A DNA stretch of 64,000 nucleotides from Spirochaetia bacterium (GCA_963662265.2 CAXXHA010000001.1:128001-192000), one strand, 5' to 3'; positions 19,058-27,667 are shown, counted from the stretch's first letter. Numbers and translations: made by a program. Notes: a model not told the origin generated them from the sequence alone.

Positions 19058-20530
19058 TTATGTTCTTAAAACAACGACTGTGTTACGCCCTTTTTCTTTT
19101 GCTTTATATAATGCCTGATCAGCACTGTTGGTGAATTGGCGGACATCAACATTTTTGCTGTGTTTCATAGATGCAACACCGATACTTAATGTGATTCTTC
19201 CATTCGGAGAAGAACTGTTTTCAATATTAGCCTGATAAACAGCCAGAACAATTTTCCCTGCTATTTTTTCAGCATCGCTTTCAGACACCTGATCGAGTAC
19301 CAGTATAAATTCCTCTCCCCCATACCTGGCAAAGACATCCTGTTTTCTTATCGTATTATTGATGAGATTTGTAACAGATATCAGTACTTCATCCCCTTTA
19401 ATATGGCCGTAAGTATCATTATAACCTTTGAAGTGATCGATATCCATCATCAGAAGACTTATTTCAGAGCAACCATCTGCAGACTTCCACAGGTTTTCCA
19501 TATACAGGTTGAAATATCTCCTGTTGAAAATACCTGTAAGGAAATCTCTTTCATTGTCTAATGTAAGAAGCTGGTTTTTCTTTTCCAGTTCCTGTTTAAT
19601 GCGGATTATCAGCTGAAGAAGCATCAGGATAATTCCCAGCATCAGCAAGTTGAATATAATGCTTTTATTATTCAGTTTGATGAAATGAATAATATCATGG
19701 TTTTCAACAGCTGCTACAGAAAGATACCATTCACCATCTTCTATTTTTCTGATGATGCCTCTGGTCTTTTTGCCGGCAGCAACATATTCCATCCGTACAA
19801 TTTGGTTTGTATTCTTAACCTCTTCAATGTAACTGAGGAATAAATCCTGCCGTGCAAAGTAGGATTCGTAATGCTGTTTTTCAAATATATTTGTACCAAC
19901 AAGGTCCTGTCTCAGTGTATGAACAATAACTGTTCCTTCAGAGTTCAGCAGGTATGTATATATATTTTTGCCGCTTATCTGATTTGCAAGCCATTTACTG
20001 ATATTATTCATGAAGACATCAGCTGATATGACACCGACAAATCTACTGTCCAGGTAAAGAGGAGAACTTATAGTTACTGTCCTGTCTCCGGTTTCCAGGT
20101 CAATATAAACATCAGAAATAATTGTATCATTTGCCTGAATAGCTTCCTTGTACCATATACGGGTCCTCGGATCATAATCATCAGGAGGTATCCACTCACC
20201 TCCGGTTATAAATTCACCGGATGCAAAACCTATATATATCTGGGAAATATCAGGATCATCATTATTTATATTGAGATACGGGTTCAATGTATTCCAGCCG
20301 GTAATTTCTTCATAACTGAAGTTATCAACAAAATCTTTTGCTGTATTCAGGATTTCCTTTTTGTTGCTGATCCATGAAGTAAAATCAGTTGTATCTTTAT
20401 GTAAGTCATTAACCAGTTTATTGTATTGGTTTTCACTGCTTTTATTACTGAGATCATGAACATTGTAAATAATAAATATTATTATTGAGATAACTAGTAA
20501 TAATATGATTAAGCTGAATTTTTTTCTCAT
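19058..20530 (-). CDS. dCache-sensor diguanylate cyclase
   Basis: TM helix, YDPRTRIWY, second TM helix, then DIDHFK...RYGGEEF. Confidence 0.92.
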   Translation of the reverse strand: MRKKFSLIILLLVISIIIFIIYNVHDLSNKSSENQYNKLVNDLHKDTTDFTSWISNKKEILNTAKDFVDNFSYEEITGWNTLNPYLNINNDDPDISQIYIGFASGEFITGGEWIPPDDYDPRTRIWYKEAIQANDTIISDVYIDLETGDRTVTISSPLYLDSRFVGVISADVFMNNISKWLANQISGKNIYTYLLNSEGTVIVHTLRQDLVGTNIFEKQHYESYFARQDLFLSYIEEVKNTNQIVRMEYVAAGKKTRGIIRKIEDGEWYLSVAAVENHDIIHFIKLNNKSIIFNLLMLGIILMLLQLIIRIKQELEKKNQLLTLDNERDFLTGIFNRRYFNLYMENLWKSADGCSEISLLMMDIDHFKGYNDTYGHIKGDEVLISVTNLINNTIRKQDVFARYGGEEFILVLDQVSESDAEKIAGKIVLAVYQANIENSSSPNGRITLSIGVASMKHSKNVDVRQFTNSADQALYKAKEKGRNTVVVLRT

Positions 20531-20769
20531 TATATATGCCTTTAATAATTATATAACAGATTATTATAAAACCCCATAAGACTATAACATGTTCAAACAT
20601 TTATTCGATAGTGATTCAGCATAATATTCAGTTAAAGAGATATAAAATGATTAATATTAATAATATACCCTGTCTTTTTCACTTGCCCATAGAGCCGGAA
20701 AATAATTTTTAATAACAATTTCAGTAATTCACTTACAGATAAACAAAATAAATACTTTATTCTGAAATT

Positions 20770-22155
20770 CTACATGCCCGGAATATTCAGAGGTTTCTTA
20801 AAAAAGAAATCTGAAACTTTTTCAGAAAAACTGTCAAGCAGACCAATATCGTCAAGCAGCTGAAGAATTGTATATCTTGTTCGGATCTCCTTTGACATTC
20901 TGATTCCGCTGCAAAGTGAATCCCTGCTGATTCCAATCTGGGCCGGAGTATGAGATGCACCGAGATCTTTCAGGATTTTTTCAATAATTCCGTTTTCGGG
21001 AATTACTATTTTTATTGTAGAAAGAATATCATCCCAGTTATTTTCTATAGCATTTACCCTTTTTATATATTCACTTTTATTGTATTTGTTTTCTTTTAAA
21101 TTCTGCTCTACTATTGCGTTTGATGCCTTTCCGAAAACGCCATGTACAGCATCAGTCCAGTTTCTGATATTTTTTCTGTTTATTTTGTCCCGTGCTTCAT
21201 TAAAATCAACATGTGCTGACAGCAGCATATCATACAGCTTCAGAATAACAACAGCTGTTACACCTACTTCAATACCATGCAGAACAGGAGTTTTATTATT
21301 CATTAATGACATCATTTCAAAATAGTGCGACAGATGATGTTCAGATCCGGAAGCCGGCCTGGAATTCCTGACAAACCCCATTGCAATACCGATCAATACA
21401 AGTCCTGCCACCAGGTTTTCTATTGATTCAATTTTTCTATTCTTGATTCCTTCGGTGTCTCCAATACACTTTTTTACCGATTCTCTTACCATTTCAATAA
21501 CACTGGGACAGTAGTATTCATTATTTATTATCCGGCCCAATTCCCAATCACACAAAGAAGTATACTTCCCAAGCATATCACCCAATCCTGCAAAAATCAT
21601 ATTCAGGGGGGCATTTTTAATGATATCGGTATCAGCAATAATTACTTTCGGAAATCCAGCCTCATAAGTAGTCTTGAGGTTGTCAATTATCAGAGCAGAT
21701 CCTACAGAAGCAAATCCATCCATCGAAGGTGCAGTAATCACTATTATATAAGGTATTTTACATCTGTTGCTTACATATTTGCAAAGATCATTGATTGTTC
21801 CGCTGCCGACAGCAATTATCAGATCCACCGAATCATCTATCTTTGCCATTACTGAGCCGATTGTAAATTCGTCAGGCACAATTGAGTTACTGCTTTTCAG
21901 TATGCATGTTTCAAGTTTTTCAATTTTTGCAGAGAGAACACTATCCACCTGTTTTCCGGCAGCTTTATAACAGTTATCATCAGTAACCATTAAAGCTTTT
22001 TTAAAACCATTTTTCTCCAAAACTCCCGGCAACAAATTAACAGCACCGCTTGATATCAGAATATCATCAATATCAATCTTATGTTCTCTGCCGCAACTGC
22101 ATTTAATACTGTTACCAAGTAATTCATTAATTTCAAGTTCACTCATTTTCTTCAT
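20770..22155 (-). CDS. egsA: sn-glycerol-1-phosphate dehydrogenase, AraM/EgsA type
   Basis: CSCGREH, AVGSGTINDLCK, TAPSMDGFAS, GLGDMLGK, SRPASGSEHHLSH and LHG motifs; likely start MKKMSE. Confidence 0.85.
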   Translation of the reverse strand: MKKMSELEINELLGNSIKCSCGREHKIDIDDILISSGAVNLLPGVLEKNGFKKALMVTDDNCYKAAGKQVDSVLSAKIEKLETCILKSSNSIVPDEFTIGSVMAKIDDSVDLIIAVGSGTINDLCKYVSNRCKIPYIIVITAPSMDGFASVGSALIIDNLKTTYEAGFPKVIIADTDIIKNAPLNMIFAGLGDMLGKYTSLCDWELGRIINNEYYCPSVIEMVRESVKKCIGDTEGIKNRKIESIENLVAGLVLIGIAMGFVRNSRPASGSEHHLSHYFEMMSLMNNKTPVLHGIEVGVTAVVILKLYDMLLSAHVDFNEARDKINRKNIRNWTDAVHGVFGKASNAIVEQNLKENKYNKSEYIKRVNAIENNWDDILSTIKIVIPENGIIEKILKDLGASHTPAQIGISRDSLCSGIRMSKEIRTRYTILQLLDDIGLLDSFSEKVSDFFFKKPLNIPGM

Positions 22156-22262
22156 TTTAGACCCTGTTCCTGTTTGTTGAGAATTTCGCAGCTGGTAATA
22201 AACAGCATTATATAAAGGGAACTGCAGACTGCTTGACACACCCTGCAATCCCCTGATTTATT

Positions 22263-23318
22263 CTATTCTTTTATTGCATTATTCCATGCTTCAACCAGAC
22301 GGCCCTTGTTTGCGCCTGACCAGCTGAAATCATAATTGATGAGTTTTGTACTTTTTAACGGGGCAGCTTCTGCCGGAGGATTGGCATCTACATTAGTCAG
22401 GAAATGATATGAACCATGTTTCTGTCCAATTTCCTGAGTTTCTTTTGTAAGTGACCAGTCAACAAATATTTTGGCAGCTTCAAATTCAGGAGCTCCCTTT
22501 ATTATTCCGACTGCACCTATTTCATACCCTGTGCCTTCTTCAGGAGCAGATATCTTGACATTTTCAAAGCCTTCCTTAATATGTCTCAAGCCGTTCTGAA
22601 GAAATGTGATACCTATTGCACATTCTCCAAGTGCTGCTGATTTTGCAGGAGCTGAACCGGATTTTGTATACTGTTTTATCTGCTTGTGCAGTTTTCCCAT
22701 ATAGCTGAGAGCCTTTTCTTCCCCTGTAAGCTGAACCATTGTTGAGAGGAAAGTATAGGCAGTTCCTGACGAACCTGGATTGGCAACAATTATATTTCCC
22801 TTGAATTCCGGTTTCAGAAGATCGTCCCATGATTTTGGAAGGTCGATGTTATTTTCATCAAAATATCTTCCGTCACAGACAAATCCCAGATATCCCTGAT
22901 AAATACCTGTCCAGTAGCCTTCAGGATCTTTAAACTGTTCAGATATTTTAGGTGAAGTTTTTGATACATATTTTTCCAGCAAGCCCTCATTAGCAGCTGC
23001 TATAAAAGAATCAGCAGGACCGCCGTACCATACACTGGCTTTCGGATTTTCTTTTTCAGCTCTAATTCTGCTCAGAATTTCTCCACCGCTCATCCTTACA
23101 AAATCAACCCGGATCCCTGTTTCTTTTTCAAATTCCTGGGCTTTGATAATTGCCTCTTCTTCGAGAACTCCCATATAAACAGTAACATGATCTGATACAG
23201 CTTTTTCAGCAGAACCTGTATCATTCTTACTGCCTGCTGAGGAACCCTTATCACTGCATCCTGCCAGCAATAACATAAACACCACACAAATTAAAACATT
23301 TCTCATAATAATCTTCAT
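22263..23318 (-). CDS. ABC substrate-binding lipoprotein, AfuA/FbpA-like
   Basis: Lipobox LAGC; WYGGPAD, PKSWDDLL, GSSGTAY and EGTGYEIG motifs. Confidence 0.88.
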   Translation of the reverse strand: MKIIMRNVLICVVFMLLLAGCSDKGSSAGSKNDTGSAEKAVSDHVTVYMGVLEEEAIIKAQEFEKETGIRVDFVRMSGGEILSRIRAEKENPKASVWYGGPADSFIAAANEGLLEKYVSKTSPKISEQFKDPEGYWTGIYQGYLGFVCDGRYFDENNIDLPKSWDDLLKPEFKGNIIVANPGSSGTAYTFLSTMVQLTGEEKALSYMGKLHKQIKQYTKSGSAPAKSAALGECAIGITFLQNGLRHIKEGFENVKISAPEEGTGYEIGAVGIIKGAPEFEAAKIFVDWSLTKETQEIGQKHGSYHFLTNVDANPPAEAAPLKSTKLINYDFSWSGANKGRLVEAWNNAIKE

Positions 23319-23489
23319 AACCTACTCCTATAATTAAAAATGACTTCTTTACTTCCTATCCTGTATTCCAGTTTTCAGGCAAAAATATTAAAGAACATGC
23401 ATCCTGGTATTAAGTGATAGCTTTTTAACAAGTAATACATATTTTTTTATCTGCTGAACGACACCTCCTTAAACCGATTCATTATTTTT

Positions 23490-24578
23490 TCAAATAATGT
23501 GAATGCATTCTTCCTGAACACTGAGCTTGACTTTTTCATCATCAAAAAATATTTCCTTTCCGACAGGATTTGCCTCTTCGATAAAAAGGGGATAACCGTT
23601 AACTGATACCGAATACTCCTGTCTGGATCCCATATAAGTTGACATTGTAACAACGCCGTCAAGCTGACCTTTTTTTCCGACTGATATTGATTCAGGTCTT
23701 ATAACCAGTTTTACTTTCTGGTCTATTTCATATTCTTTTTCTGCAGCGGCCGGAATTCTGAGAGTATTTCCAAACAAGTCGACATTTACAGTTTCACTTT
23801 CAATTTTCCTGACTGTTCCCTCAACAATATTGGCCCGCCCGATAAAATCAGCAACAAAGGATGTCTTCGGATGCTGATAAATTTCCTGGGGAGTTCCCAC
23901 CTGCTCAATCCGCCCTTTGTTCATGATGATTATCTTGTCAGACATACTCATAGCTTCAACCTGATCATGGGTAACATAGATACTAGTCAAATTCAGTCTC
24001 CGCTGAATTTTCCTTATTTCTGTTCTCATATAAGCACGCAGTTTTGCATCAAGATTTGAAAGCGGTTCATCAAAAAGCAGCACCTCGGGTTCCATTACAA
24101 GGGCACGGGCAAGAGCAACACGCTGCTGCTGACCTCCTGAAAGCTGGTTGGGACTCCTTGATTCAAGTCCGTCCAGATTCACAAGACTCAAAACTTCCTC
24201 AACTTTTGATTTAATATTTCCGTTACTGACTTTTGATTTATTCAACCTGAGACCGTAGGCAACATTGTCGAATACACTGTAATGAGGAAACAAAGCATAA
24301 CTCTGGAAAACCATTGCTGTATCCCTGTTGTTGGGCGGCACATTATTAATTTTTTTATTTCCTATATATATTTCACCGCTGGTGGGTATTTCAAATCCGG
24401 CAATCATCCGGAGCGTTGTTGTTTTTCCGCAGCCTGATGGACCAAGCAGGGTAACAAAATCCCCTGCATTAATATCAAGTGAAATATTATCAACAGCCTT
24501 GAAAAGACTTTTCCCGTCATGGGTTATATATTCTTTGGATATATTTTCAAACCTTACATTTTTTGATTTCTGTTCCAA
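23490..24578 (-). CDS. ABC ATPase, AfuC/PotA-like
   Basis: GPSGCGKT, LSGGQQQR and DEPLSNLD motifs; C-terminal TOBE-like region. Confidence 0.93.
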   Translation of the reverse strand: MEQKSKNVRFENISKEYITHDGKSLFKAVDNISLDINAGDFVTLLGPSGCGKTTTLRMIAGFEIPTSGEIYIGNKKINNVPPNNRDTAMVFQSYALFPHYSVFDNVAYGLRLNKSKVSNGNIKSKVEEVLSLVNLDGLESRSPNQLSGGQQQRVALARALVMEPEVLLFDEPLSNLDAKLRAYMRTEIRKIQRRLNLTSIYVTHDQVEAMSMSDKIIIMNKGRIEQVGTPQEIYQHPKTSFVADFIGRANIVEGTVRKIESETVNVDLFGNTLRIPAAAEKEYEIDQKVKLVIRPESISVGKKGQLDGVVTMSTYMGSRQEYSVSVNGYPLFIEEANPVGKEIFFDDEKVKLSVQEECIHII

Positions 24579-24595
24579 TTATTTCTCCTTCAAAC

Positions 24596-26314
24596 CTAAA
24601 CAAATTTAACATCTTTTTTACTGACGCCGACAAACCCGATTAACTTGTATAAAATCAAAATCATTAAATATACTATAAGAATCAGAATTGTAGAAAATGC
24701 TGATGCAACACCAAATTTTCCTGTTTCAACCTGATCAAGAATCTGCACTGTAAGAAAATTATACCTGGCAGAAATCAGAAAGATTACGCCGCTTATAGCT
24801 GTCATGCTTCTTATAAAGGAATAGACAAGTCCTCCGAAAAAAGCTGTTTTTATAAGGGGGATGGTAACAGAAGTAAATACTTTCGCGGACCCGGCTCCAA
24901 GATCTGCTGCAGCTTCTTCAATTCCCGGATCAATCTGCTGCAGAGAAGATATTCCCGCCCTTATACTCAAAGGTATACTCCTGGCAACCAGAGCAATAAC
25001 CAGAATTGCGGCTGTTCCTGTAATTGCTATAGGTTTTGAATTAAAAGCAAGAATATATCCAATTCCAATAATTGTGCCCGGAACAGCAATACAGAGCATG
25101 GATGTAAAATCAATCAGATTCCTTCCTATAAATCTTTTCCGGACAATAAGAAAAGCGATTACCATACCAAGTATACCGGTTATAGGCATTGCAATAAGGG
25201 ACAGCCAGGTAGTTTGGAGAATAGCCTTTGTTCCGACAGACAGTGCATATTTATAATGATCAAGTGTCAAACTGTAATTAATTCCCCACAGCTTCACAAA
25301 GGAGCCGAGAGGAATAAGAACATAAAGAAGAAGCACAATTCCCGACAGCAGGTAAACACCGGCAGCAATAGGATAACGTATGTGCTTTTCCTCAATCATG
25401 ACTCTTTCCCTTGCTGCCTTTCCTGTCACAGTTATATATACTTTTTTCTCAATCCAGTATTTCGAAACTATGAAAAGTATAATAGAAATATTAAGAAGTA
25501 CAGTTGCAATTGCAGCCCCGCCCTGCATGTCATAATTCCCTATAGCCTGCAGATAAACCTGGGTAGCCATGGTCGGAAAATTGCCTCCAATTGTCATTGG
25601 ATTTCCGAAATCAGCTATTGAAGAAATAAAAACAAGGATAAATGAATTGATTAGTCCCGGTGAAACAAGAGGCACTGTTACTTTTCTGAAAGTTTCCCAC
25701 CTGCTTCCCCCCAGATTCATTGATGCCTCTTCCATTGAAGGATCAATACCCCGGATCATTCCATTCAGAAGAAGATAGGAAATAGGGAAAAAGGTTAATG
25801 TCTGAACAAATATAAGCCCTTTTAAACCATATATATTAAAATTTCTTATTCCGAGCACATTATATGTAATAAGCCCCCTGCTGCCGAAAAGAAGGATTAT
25901 TGAAAGAGCCACAGCAAACGGAGGAGATATGATCGGGAGCATTGCAACAAGGTCAAAAATCTTTTTCCCCGACATTTTTATATAGACACTTGAGTATGAA
26001 AAGAGAAACCCAATCATTGTGGCAAGGATTCCTACAACACATCCAAGAAATACGGAATTCCAGATTGCCCTGATATTGTCAGAGTATTTAAAAACCCTTA
26101 GATACCCTTCCAGGGTAAAAGAACCATTTTCACTGATAACACTCTGTATTATTACTTTATACAGAGGAAGAACTATAAATAAAAAAACAGTGACAAATAC
26201 AAGCAAAATAAAAAAAACAAGAACAGGATCCCTGATTATTTTTTTCATATCTTTTATCTGATTTTTTATCTTTAAGAAATGATTCGTTGTTACACATCTT
26301 GCAGCTAAATCCAT
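24596..26314 (-). CDS. ABC permease with two fused domains, AfuB/FbpB-like
   Basis: Two EAA loops (EEASMNLGG and EEAAADLGA); DFGNP motif. Confidence 0.9.
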   Translation of the reverse strand: MDLAARCVTTNHFLKIKNQIKDMKKIIRDPVLVFFILLVFVTVFLFIVLPLYKVIIQSVISENGSFTLEGYLRVFKYSDNIRAIWNSVFLGCVVGILATMIGFLFSYSSVYIKMSGKKIFDLVAMLPIISPPFAVALSIILLFGSRGLITYNVLGIRNFNIYGLKGLIFVQTLTFFPISYLLLNGMIRGIDPSMEEASMNLGGSRWETFRKVTVPLVSPGLINSFILVFISSIADFGNPMTIGGNFPTMATQVYLQAIGNYDMQGGAAIATVLLNISIILFIVSKYWIEKKVYITVTGKAARERVMIEEKHIRYPIAAGVYLLSGIVLLLYVLIPLGSFVKLWGINYSLTLDHYKYALSVGTKAILQTTWLSLIAMPITGILGMVIAFLIVRKRFIGRNLIDFTSMLCIAVPGTIIGIGYILAFNSKPIAITGTAAILVIALVARSIPLSIRAGISSLQQIDPGIEEAAADLGAGSAKVFTSVTIPLIKTAFFGGLVYSFIRSMTAISGVIFLISARYNFLTVQILDQVETGKFGVASAFSTILILIVYLMILILYKLIGFVGVSKKDVKFV

Positions 26315-26373
26315 TCAACTCCCCTTGATCAGAAACATTTTTATCATTTAACAACATATTGACACTGTCATTA

Positions 26374-26430
26374 TTACATACTTTTACATTTTGTCAACAT
26401 TTTTTAACATTTTTTAACATTTAATAACGT
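26374..26430. promoter_or_regulatory. Phased direct repeats, putative DeoR operator
   Basis: TTACAT/CAACAT/TAACAT-like units at 26374, 26384, 26395, 26405, 26415 and 26425. Confidence 0.55.
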
Positions 26431-26522
26431 AAATAATTACATACAGCGTCAGAACAGCTGTATGTTTTTCAGTGAGTAAATATTATTTATGATAAGTTTT
26501 GATTAAAAAAACAGACTGTATA

Positions 26523-27326
26523 TTATGAAAGATCAGAAATATCAGCTATATGAACTCTTATCCCCATATTCCTGATTTTACAAACATACATTTCATCAAG
26601 ATCACTGTCTGTAACCAGATCAGTTACTTTATCTATTTCTGAAGTGAGAAAATTTGACACTTTTCCGATTTTGGAAGAATCAGCAACTACAATAACAAGC
26701 CCGGTTGTCTGTTTTATCATAAGGTTGTTAAGCATTGCTTCTGCATAGACAGGTGTTGTAAGACCATGAGTCAGGCTGAATCCGTCAACACCTATTACTG
26801 CTTTTGATCCATACACTTCCCTCACTGTTCTGAAAGCAGTTTCCCCGACAAGAGAGAAAGATTCTCTCCTCAGTTCCCCCCCTATCATAATAACCTTGAC
26901 CTTTTCTGAAAGGGTTTCAGAAGGAGCTTTGGCATTGTTTGTAATAATTTTAACCCTTTCTTTGGAAACAAACCTGAGAAACTGAAGTGTTGTGGAGCCT
27001 GAATTGACAAAAACAGTATCATCCTCATCTATCAGGGTTGCAACAAGACGCCCGATAGCTTCTTTTTTTATTTTGTTTTTCTGACTTTTCTGTGCATATA
27101 AAGGTTCAAGGCTTATATGATCAGATATCAATGCACCTCCATGTGTTCTTTCAAGTAATCCGTCTTTTTCCATAACTTCAAGATCACGTCTTATTGTCAT
27201 TTCAGTAACATTAAACTGTTTGCTTAATTCGCCGATGCTTACAATCTTCTTTTCCTGTATTATGCTGAAAATAGTATCCCGGCGTTTTGCTGGAATTAAT
27301 CCGTCTTTCTGAATCTGATTATTCAT
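26523..27326 (-). CDS. DeoR/GlpR-family regulator
   Basis: VTEMTIRRDL, RTHGGA, SGST and ADSSK motifs; likely start MNNQ after GGAGG. Confidence 0.93.
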   Translation of the reverse strand: MNNQIQKDGLIPAKRRDTIFSIIQEKKIVSIGELSKQFNVTEMTIRRDLEVMEKDGLLERTHGGALISDHISLEPLYAQKSQKNKIKKEAIGRLVATLIDEDDTVFVNSGSTTLQFLRFVSKERVKIITNNAKAPSETLSEKVKVIMIGGELRRESFSLVGETAFRTVREVYGSKAVIGVDGFSLTHGLTTPVYAEAMLNNLMIKQTTGLVIVVADSSKIGKVSNFLTSEIDKVTDLVTDSDLDEMYVCKIRNMGIRVHIADISDLS

Positions 27327-27667
27327 ATTGTATCCTCCAGGAAAAGCCTGCAATACTGATATTTAAATATAATATTTCCATGATATTACTGACAGAATAG
27401 TGGCCAAAGATAACATTGTCAATAATTTTATAACATTTTCCAACATCACAATCAGATACAGCTTTATTCACGCTTTTAGAATACAAGACAGTTCAAGACT
27501 GATAGCGACTTTATCAAACATGTACTAGCTGAAGCAGCCCCTTTTATTTTTTATGGTAACTAACAACACTCTTGTAATTTAAATAAAGAACAACTATAAT
27601 CATTATAATTACTTTGAAAATTATTTTTCTTTGTATATTTCTGGAATAAAAACTGTATAGGTCTATT

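Follow-up and report, generated by a model that had tools for sequence, protein, structure and literature searches.

This analysis concerns a cluster of five genes in a 64,000-nucleotide (nt) stretch of DNA from a Spirochaetia bacterium (GCA_963662265.2, CAXXHA010000001.1:128001-192000), hereafter the window, whose own numbering is used for all coordinates (Table 1). The genes are co-directional on the minus strand and encode a DeoR/GlpR-family regulator, a fused two-domain ABC permease, an ABC ATPase, a lipoprotein substrate-binding protein (SBP) and a predicted AraM-type dehydrogenase, an arrangement that we interpret as a putative module for uptake and oxidation of a phosphate ester. An earlier reading made from the nucleotide string alone (the sequence-only reading) had described regulator, importer and dehydrogenase as running in one direction, and both coordinates and Pfam assignments agree with this for all five genes. 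None of the five proteins reaches an NCBIfam equivalog cut-off, and so none carries a curated name.

Several lines of evidence place the importer in the AfuA organophosphate family and not among iron systems. By sequence, the binding protein is closest among solved structures to 8x1a (5.7e-69), AfuA (4r72, 4.4e-64) and the pyridoxal-phosphate binder P5PA (6wce, 5.9e-54), whereas the solved true iron binders YfuA, SfuA and FbpA match at 1e-15 or weaker. Its Pfam matches are to SBP_bac_6/8/11/1 models alone, and it groups with the SBP_bac_6 proteins of the cluster D type II fold, nearer AfuA than the iron binders. The earlier suggestion that the system was Afu-like, and possibly not for iron, is consistent with this assignment. 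As far as the two reports describe them, the three characterised members of the AfuA family bind phosphate esters and not iron (PMC4546632, PMC8427247).

Contacts published for AfuA and P5PA in these reports were mapped onto the binding protein through sequence alignment, with an offset of +2 between the chain index and the published numbering. The pocket residues, numbered as in AfuA, are Y103, Q104, S147, S148, G149, T150, S184, G185, S186, F203, L204, Q205, N206, E229 and H269. The phosphate-contact motifs SSGT and KSG are retained together with Y103 and E229, and four positions are substituted (H205Q, D206N, Q269H and T60P). Of the residues given as coordinating phosphate in AfuA-type binding proteins (S37/G38, T60, S148-G149-T150 and S184-G185; PMC8427247), the aligned protein keeps SSGT and SG, reads S-G-G at 36-38 where AfuA has G-S-G, and has proline in place of T60. 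In the account of Sit et al., binding of glucose-6-phosphate (G6P) is lost on mutation to alanine at any of three residues, H205 and D206 among them, and with E229 these two form the triad used there to define AfuA homologues (PMC4546632). Because this sugar-coordinating triad reads Q205, N206 and E229 in the window, the protein is best described as a relative of AfuA and not as an AfuA orthologue. The sequence-only reading had remarked that SSGT was kept and FLHD replaced by FLQN, which the AfuA alignment reproduces, and the changes that it took as a hint of a different ligand do fall on residues essential for G6P binding.

The remaining importer genes conform to the AfuABC architecture: the permease is a fusion of two domains, and one ATPase gene accompanies the gene for the binding protein. 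The best NCBIfam models for the importer are PhnS2 (241.8 bits, cut-off 392.75), PhnT2 (378, cut-off 457.7) and, for the permease, PhnU2 (289.9, cut-off 593), all below cut-off. The cluster shares binding-protein family, fused permease and lone ATPase with AfuABC of Actinobacillus pleuropneumoniae and Citrobacter rodentium and with its paralogue P5PA (PMC4546632, PMC8427247). It differs in gene order (permease-ATPase-SBP, whereas the SBP gene comes first in AfuABC), in the added DeoR regulator and adjacent dehydrogenase, in the lipoprotein nature of the binding protein, and in the residues at 205, 206 and 269. Elsewhere in the same genome, 13 places score above the SBP_bac_6 cut-off and many Afu/PhnS-type binding proteins are encoded; the full AfuA triad occurs in two of the SBP_bac_6 proteins (contig 25, 27271-28143, and contig 28, 15326-16312), and a copy on contig 16 is broken by three TGA codons.

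The dehydrogenase has as its nearest solved relative 9h4x (4.2e-56 in a PDB sequence search), labelled by Foldseek as the Ni-dependent sn-glycerol-1-phosphate (G1P) dehydrogenase AraM of B. subtilis. A model made with AlphaFold (AF2; pLDDT 90.7) finds the same structure as its best Foldseek match (E 4e-28, TM 0.87), followed by 3ce9, then the G1P dehydrogenases (G1PDHs) 4rgq, 4rfl and 5fb3, with those of M. jannaschii among them, and after these the glycerol dehydrogenases. The fold is that of the G1PDHs (EgsA/AraM, EC 1.1.1.261; Fe-ADH_2 PF13685 / dehydroquinate-synthase-like), and we predict an AraM-type enzyme acting on G1P or a polyol phosphate, in line with the AraM/EgsA-type label given earlier. 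The motifs APSxDGF, GxGDMLGK, SRPASGxEHHxSH and LHG are common to the enzyme and AraM and invariant in 16 of 16 subfamily members, as are D146, H273, H274, H277 and H293, which align with AraM. Presumably the aspartate and two of the histidines act as metal ligands, as we take to be the rule in this family.

The window enzyme is longer than AraM (461 against 394 residues), with about 29% identity over the structural alignment, and the two differ in context. AraM belongs to an ara operon and feeds PcrB, whereas the window enzyme sits beside an importer. The sequence-only reading saw no ara genes or PcrB in the window, and this holds as far as tested: neither PcrB (PF01884) nor AraA_N (PF02610) is matched anywhere in the assembly (90.6% complete), in a search that did not extend to araB, araD or UbiA-type prenyltransferases. 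With no PcrB found, G1P lacks its known bacterial use. In a tree of 79 sequences the enzyme falls in a 30-row clade (SH-aLRT 87) with forms that are fused to a HAD-IIA phosphatase or adjacent to AraL, and a HAD-IIA fusion is present in 24 of its 120 listed closest homologues, the query itself being among the 120. Such fusions of about 730 residues (P0002 and 23 others; loci L010, L011, L013, L015 and L055) are common in Clostridia, and their composition suggests either a route from dihydroxyacetone phosphate (DHAP) through G1P to glycerol or a G1P-specific phosphatase partner.

The regulator has the domain composition of the DeoR/GlpR family (HTH_DeoR, 57.9 bits; DeoRC, 128.2 bits), its best NCBIfam model being AgaR (176 bits, cut-off 260). 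Ahead of deoR and of the permease gene lie the top two promoter-like sites of the region, both with the direct repeat ATGTT-N5-ATGTT. This repeat occurs four times in the 64 kb against 0.53 expected, a count reached in none of 100 shuffles, and three of the four copies lie on these two promoters. We regard the repeats as candidate operators that the DeoR protein would bind at both its own gene and the transporter operon. The fourth copy falls within the 240 nt that separate the dehydrogenase stop codon from a gene for a dCache-GGDEF diguanylate cyclase, which might also be under the control of this DeoR protein.

Two inverted repeats were found at gene ends. The perfect hairpin after the deoR stop codon is a possible terminator, and the 123-nt stretch that holds it is not significant alone (z -1.33). 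For the 107 nt that separate the binding-protein gene from the dehydrogenase gene, the folding energy is -31.2 kcal/mol (z -3.17), a value matched by none of 200 shuffles. The hairpin formed there occurs once in the genome, and the idea of a repeated genomic element was rejected on this ground; it is a candidate for a partial terminator, an mRNA stabiliser or a module junction. By the criteria of the scanning tool, neither of the two spacers in the putative operon contains a promoter-like or terminator-like site. On either side of the cluster, the window contains genes for a HAD_2 hydrolase, HTH regulators, a META protein, the dCache-GGDEF protein, a serine dehydratase and a Na/H antiporter-family protein.

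Table 1. Genes and sequence elements of the cluster, in window coordinates (window length 64,000 nt)
Feature	Coordinates	Strand	Details
DeoR/GlpR-family regulator	26523-27353	-	276-aa ORF from TTG; probable start ATG 27326 behind GGAGG
Fused two-domain ABC permease, AfuB-like	24596-26314	-	572 aa; Pfam BPD_transp_1 in two stretches
ABC ATPase	23490-24578	-	362 aa; ABC_tran and TOBE_2; TTG start behind AAGGAG
Lipoprotein SBP, assigned to AfuA/P5PA family	22263-23318	-	351 aa; SBP_bac_6 101.6 bits; lipobox LLAGC
Dehydrogenase, Fe-ADH_2, predicted AraM-type	20770-22155	-	461 aa; Fe-ADH_2 109 bits; likely start ATG 22155; ORF 20770-22248
Promoter-like site before deoR	27422-27394 (element 27394-27446)	-	TTGACA-17-TATTCT; promoter scan
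Direct repeat at deoR promoter	27432-27446	-	ATGTT-N5-ATGTT with a further ATGTT; candidate DeoR operator
Promoter-like site before permease gene	26370-26420	-	TTGACA-16-AATAAT with TG, 11/12; best of region
Two direct repeats overlapping permease promoter-like site	26396-26420	-	ATGTT-N5-ATGTT; candidate transporter-operon operator
Hairpin after deoR stop	26439-26465	-	9-bp perfect stem, ACATACAGC/GCTGTATGT; possible deoR terminator
Hairpin after binding-protein stop	22216-22254	-	stable, 13 + 3 bp stem, then TTTATATAAT; starts directly after the stop codon
Fourth direct repeat	20586-20600	-	ATGTT-N5-ATGTT
dCache-GGDEF diguanylate cyclase gene	19058-20530		

Comparison of orthologous transporter loci provides a context in which the window cluster can be understood. 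Transporter orthologues were found in 4 of 400 Clostridia genomes, 33 of 301 Negativicutes genomes and 3 of 400 other genomes of the spirochaete phylum, and flanks were fetched for the 4 Clostridia, the best 16 of the 33 Negativicutes and the 3 spirochaetes (23 loci). Identity to the orthologues is 56-66% for the permease and 54-61% for the ATPase, and the best 120 listed homologues of the binding protein are 57-71% identical. Among these 120, positions 205, 206, 229 and 269 read H-N-E-Q in 62, H-N-S-Q in 26, H-D-E-Q in 17 and H-N-E-H in 11; the Q-N-E-H combination is found in two, the window protein being one. The Clostridia loci have the order SBP-permease-ATPase, an H-D pocket and no enzyme, with a YesM/YesN-type two-component system at three of four. 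Among the Negativicutes loci, 12 of 16 have the window order permease-ATPase-SBP with an H-N pocket, and the other four are AfuA-type, with the SBP gene first and FLHD. A 6-phosphogluconate dehydrogenase gene (Gnd) directly follows the SBP gene at 7 of these 12 loci (L199-L205); at one further locus Gnd lies 4.5 kb upstream, and an RpiR regulator is nearby in four. The four closest Negativicutes loci are without Gnd. One of them (L195) has a UhpBA-like two-component pair upstream by Pfam, and L196 and L197 have ORFs of comparable size at that position. The window gene order recurs at 57-61% identity in two spirochaete loci (L172 and L173, genomes G638 and G561), both with a divergent upstream RpiR gene and 6-phosphogluconate dehydrogenase, and one with an FGGY kinase; their pocket has H205, T103, A148, S149 and E186.

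The Gnd operons of Negativicutes and spirochaetes thus resemble the window in their three orthologous transporter proteins (56-70% identity), in gene order, in N206 and in a dehydrogenase gene placed after the SBP gene, often behind a hairpin. They differ in having 6-phosphogluconate dehydrogenase as the enzyme, RpiR as the regulator and H205 in the pocket. By analogy with the enzyme that accompanies it, the permease-ATPase-SBP-Gnd operon probably encodes a 6-phosphogluconate importer; no description of 6-phosphogluconate uptake or of a transporter for it was found in the literature searched. The gene that follows the binding-protein gene would then specify an enzyme for the probable cargo, a pattern that fits the conserved importer backbone.

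From the side of the enzyme, a scan of species genomes matched 599 stretches, of which the best 80 AraM-like loci were kept; neighbours were tallied within four ORFs at 74 of these (leaving out L029, L030, L052, L063, L072 and L075), and a metagenome scan added 18 loci. DeoR-family genes are among the neighbours at 8 of the 74 and LacI at 6, with GlpD-like, GlpP and GpsA-like genes at 4 each; by tblastn, a DeoR-family gene stands beside the AraM-like gene at 10 of the 80. Within the class an AraM-like gene is found in 5 of 21 other families, and across the phylum in 32 of 401 genomes, 16 loci of which were fetched. Among the best 80, a permease, an ATPase and an SBP_bac_6 gene adjoin the AraM-like gene at L050, L070 and L074 alone, all from Oscillospiraceae/Clostridiales metagenome-assembled genomes, and the transporter is a different one (26-29% identity). 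At L050 and L070 this importer lies between two divergent AraM-like paralogues with a DeoR gene, L050 and L074 encode a PMM/HAD-like protein, and L074 matches all three transporter proteins by tblastn. Spirochaete G692 (L165) likewise has an Afu-like importer of the L050 type, convergent with an adjoining AraM-like gene; identity is 68% for the permease and 57% for the binding protein.

The only other strong Fe-ADH_2 gene of the window genome, 31% identical to the dehydrogenase, likewise lies in an SBP_bac_6 importer cluster (G000 contig 10, L009:9232-18677, minus strand). This second cluster comprises SorC, SBP_bac_6, fused permease, ATPase, MBL-fold hydrolase, Cof-type HAD phosphatase, DRL-type oxidoreductase and AraM-like genes, back to back with carD-ispD-ispF. 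Its MBL-fold hydrolase is distantly phosphodiesterase-like, and the substrate of the cluster may be a phosphodiester or a polyol phosphate of greater complexity. The DRL oxidoreductase was considered as the only DXR of the genome and rejected, a canonical DXR being present on contig 34. In sum, AraM-like enzymes associated with organophosphate-type importers occupy at least three separate places in the tree, and other organophosphate-type ABC importers have AraM-like neighbours in no fewer than three additional lineages.

A recurrent module of another kind combines DeoR, one or two AraM-like genes, a CUT1-type importer and an AP_endonuc_2 TIM-barrel protein. In two class-level relatives, G824 (L153) and G786 (L154), a tandem AraM-like pair occurs with a DeoR protein 44-45% identical to that of the window, a CUT1 importer with two binding proteins and an AP_endonuc_2 protein. 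A fermentation metagenome contig (L109) encodes AP_endonuc_2, AraM-like, UgpC-like ATPase, two permeases, DeoR and a UgpB-like binding protein, the last a distant one (6x84, 4.4e-27). These loci hint at imported polyols or glycerol-phosphate-like compounds as substrates of some AraM-like enzymes.

Together, these comparisons are consistent with an accessory, DeoR-repressed uptake-and-oxidation module. The AfuABC-family importer, with its lipoprotein binding protein, fused permease and ATPase, would take up an extracellular phosphate ester, and the AraM-type, NAD(P)-dependent and metal-dependent dehydrogenase, presumably co-transcribed with it, would oxidise the ester, giving a keto-phosphate that feeds into central metabolism. 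It seems that the module arose from the widespread permease-ATPase-SBP-Gnd operon through three changes: Gnd to an AraM-like enzyme, RpiR to DeoR, and H205Q with Q269H in the pocket. Functional coupling is supported because the AraM-like gene fills the slot held by Gnd in orthologous importer operons, because the regulator is DeoR and not RpiR and DeoR recurs beside AraM-like genes, and because the rare pocket swap accompanies the exchange of enzyme. With the substrate left unnamed, we consider DeoR-controlled import of a phosphorylated polyol and its subsequent oxidation to be probable. The most economical substrate would be G1P, oxidised to DHAP in one step with no further enzyme needed. The nearest characterised enzyme being a G1PDH, the phosphatase partners of its clade, the DeoR/GlpR-type regulator and the lack of a PcrB match all speak for G1P, and the complete proposal with G1P as substrate and DHAP as product is put forward more tentatively, as a prospect somewhat short of even. 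All archaeal lipids, as well as lipoteichoic acid, are built on a G1P backbone; both are possible sources of the compound, as are phosphatidylglycerol head groups. Such a module would parallel E. coli Ugp/GlpT with GlpD/GlpABC and GlpR in combining a DeoR-family repressor, a glycerol phosphate importer and a DHAP-yielding dehydrogenase, but the enantiomer, the transporter family and the dehydrogenase family all differ, the last being a predicted NAD(P)-linked Fe-ADH fold here and flavoproteins there.

A number of observations weigh against this proposal, most directly those on conservation. The sequence-only reading had suggested neighbourhood conservation as a check and named a non-conserved linkage as a result that would count against it, and that is the result obtained. 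An AraM-like gene is present at none of the 23 orthologous transporter loci, a window-type transporter at none of the 98 other AraM-like loci (80 from species genomes, 18 from metagenomes), and the exact gene combination is found only in this species. The cluster is whole in a second sample from another study, with 13 differences over about 7.2 kb, and fragments at about 95% identity spanning all five genes occur in a third study; this shows retention within the species and not independent phylogenetic support. No AraM-like gene was found in 2 same-genus and 17 same-family genomes, and DNA synteny with the two same-genus genomes is restricted to scattered matches of 64-85%, mostly in ABC ATPase genes, with no syntenic flank. 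Afu-like neighbours are rare, at 3 of the 80 AraM-like loci and all in related genomes, and the SBP_bac_6 proteins linked to AraM-like genes have no shared pocket signature. The neighbourhood of AraM-like genes is mostly ara-like or polyol-related, with FGGY kinases at 11 of the 74 tallied loci, HAD-IIA at 7, CUT1 permeases at 6 and a galactitol-type phosphotransferase system (PTS-Gat) at 4, and AP_endonuc_2 isomerases at some; given such neighbours, the family may act on other polyols. The transporter relatives seem by analogy to be built for C6 phosphates, and for this reason a C3 ligand would need more pocket change than two substitutions. NAD-linked oxidation of glycerol phosphate is thermodynamically uphill. 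The G1PDH equivalog model NF002022, which we take to be built mainly on archaeal EgsA, scores the dehydrogenase at 199.4 bits against a cut-off of 413, and the second AraM-like paralogue of the genome at 192.3. What survives of the sequence-only reading is an organophosphate importer with an altered pocket, an AraM-type enzyme and no detected PcrB, with added support from the position of that enzyme in the slot of a cargo enzyme; what does not is conserved linkage.

Several of these points are compatible with the same mechanism of import and oxidation acting on a larger phosphorylated polyol or sugar derivative (C4-C6: a tetritol, pentitol or hexitol phosphate) in place of G1P. The ties of orthologous transporters to 6-phosphogluconate dehydrogenase or to sugar-phosphate-type two-component systems imply C6 ligands, few pocket residues differ from those of these orthologues, the kinases, galactitol-type PTS, CUT1 importers and isomerases found near AraM-like genes elsewhere would suit such a compound, and the dehydrogenase is both below the G1PDH cut-off and 67 residues longer than AraM. 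Going by the transporter relatives, a larger substrate rivals G1P in likelihood; weighed overall we rate it lower, as a serious but minority contender, in view of catalytic motifs very close to those of AraM and of a clade partnered with HAD-IIA phosphatases. The cluster also has no kinase, aldolase or isomerase, one of which would be needed for any 1-phospho-2-ketose other than DHAP if oxidation occurs next to the phosphate.

A separate issue is whether importer and enzyme belong together at all. The importer could serve a central sugar phosphate while a separately transcribed AraM-like gene converts DHAP to G1P for lipid synthesis through PlsY/PlsC or for glycerol. The strong hairpin and a perfect TATAAT box between the binding-protein and dehydrogenase genes make separate or attenuated transcription of the dehydrogenase possible, and both the lack of conserved linkage and the HAD-IIA fusions in 24 of the 120 listed homologues, which fit a path from DHAP through G1P to glycerol, point the same way. 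The characterised G1PDHs are all biosynthetic according to PMC4244643, and G1P is accepted by PlsY and PlsC according to PMC13400652. Set against this, the -35 region before the TATAAT box is poor, and the hairpin alone is no argument against coupling because 4 of the 7 SBP-Gnd spacers in orthologous operons have similar hairpins even though linkage is conserved there. The dehydrogenase moreover occupies the slot in which those operons keep the enzyme for the probable cargo, the pocket changed together with the enzyme, and the second AraM-like paralogue of the genome is also beside an SBP_bac_6 importer, all of which make independent function improbable. Still more remote is an importer for iron(III) or for a phosphonate of the 2-aminoethylphosphonate type, with the dehydrogenase acting on a phosphonate alcohol. 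Databases do name homologues 'iron(III) transport system substrate-binding protein' and the Phn models are the best NCBIfam hits, but these models stay below their cut-offs, AfuA outscores the solved iron binders by the wide difference given above, and the cluster and its flanks hold no C-P cleaving enzyme, the genome not having been searched for PhnX, PhnA or PhnW; we consider this explanation highly improbable.

What appears to be new in the proposed import-and-oxidation module is the combination of genes, the component families being already known. Bacterial uptake of G1P appeared in print in December 2025 for marine bacteria, by way of GpxB (PhnD family) and UgpB (CUT1), described there as the only known G1P transporters (PMC12718374); its main text, supplements aside, names no intracellular or catabolic G1P enzyme. 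Neither a catabolic G1P enzyme nor a transporter-linked G1PDH was found in the literature searched, the supplements of PMC12718374 and PMC4546632 excepted. As far as that main text goes, the window system would share with GpxB and UgpB the use of an ABC importer and the proposed role in recycling G1P, whereas its SBP_bac_6 binding protein belongs to neither the PhnD nor the CUT1 family and is unrelated to both. The furthest-reaching interpretation is a first dedicated bacterial route of G1P catabolism, with an AfuA-family importer as a third, unrelated G1P carrier and an oxidative G1P dehydrogenase, recently assembled from a 6-phosphogluconate-type uptake operon by exchange of enzyme and regulator and retuning of two residues in the pocket; taken as a whole, this version is doubtful.

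If G1P is the substrate, a transporter-linked G1P dehydrogenase would supply the missing intracellular step, and an enzyme associated with the 'lipid divide' would prove able to work catabolically. Archaeal lipids and lipoteichoic acid released from dead archaea and bacteria could then nourish the spirochaete through their glycerophosphate backbone. Whatever the substrate, the AfuA family looks modular in this comparison, a conserved importer being combined with a slot for different dehydrogenases. This slot logic may offer a practical means of predicting ligands for the many transporters wrongly annotated as iron systems, a likely 6-phosphogluconate importer among them.

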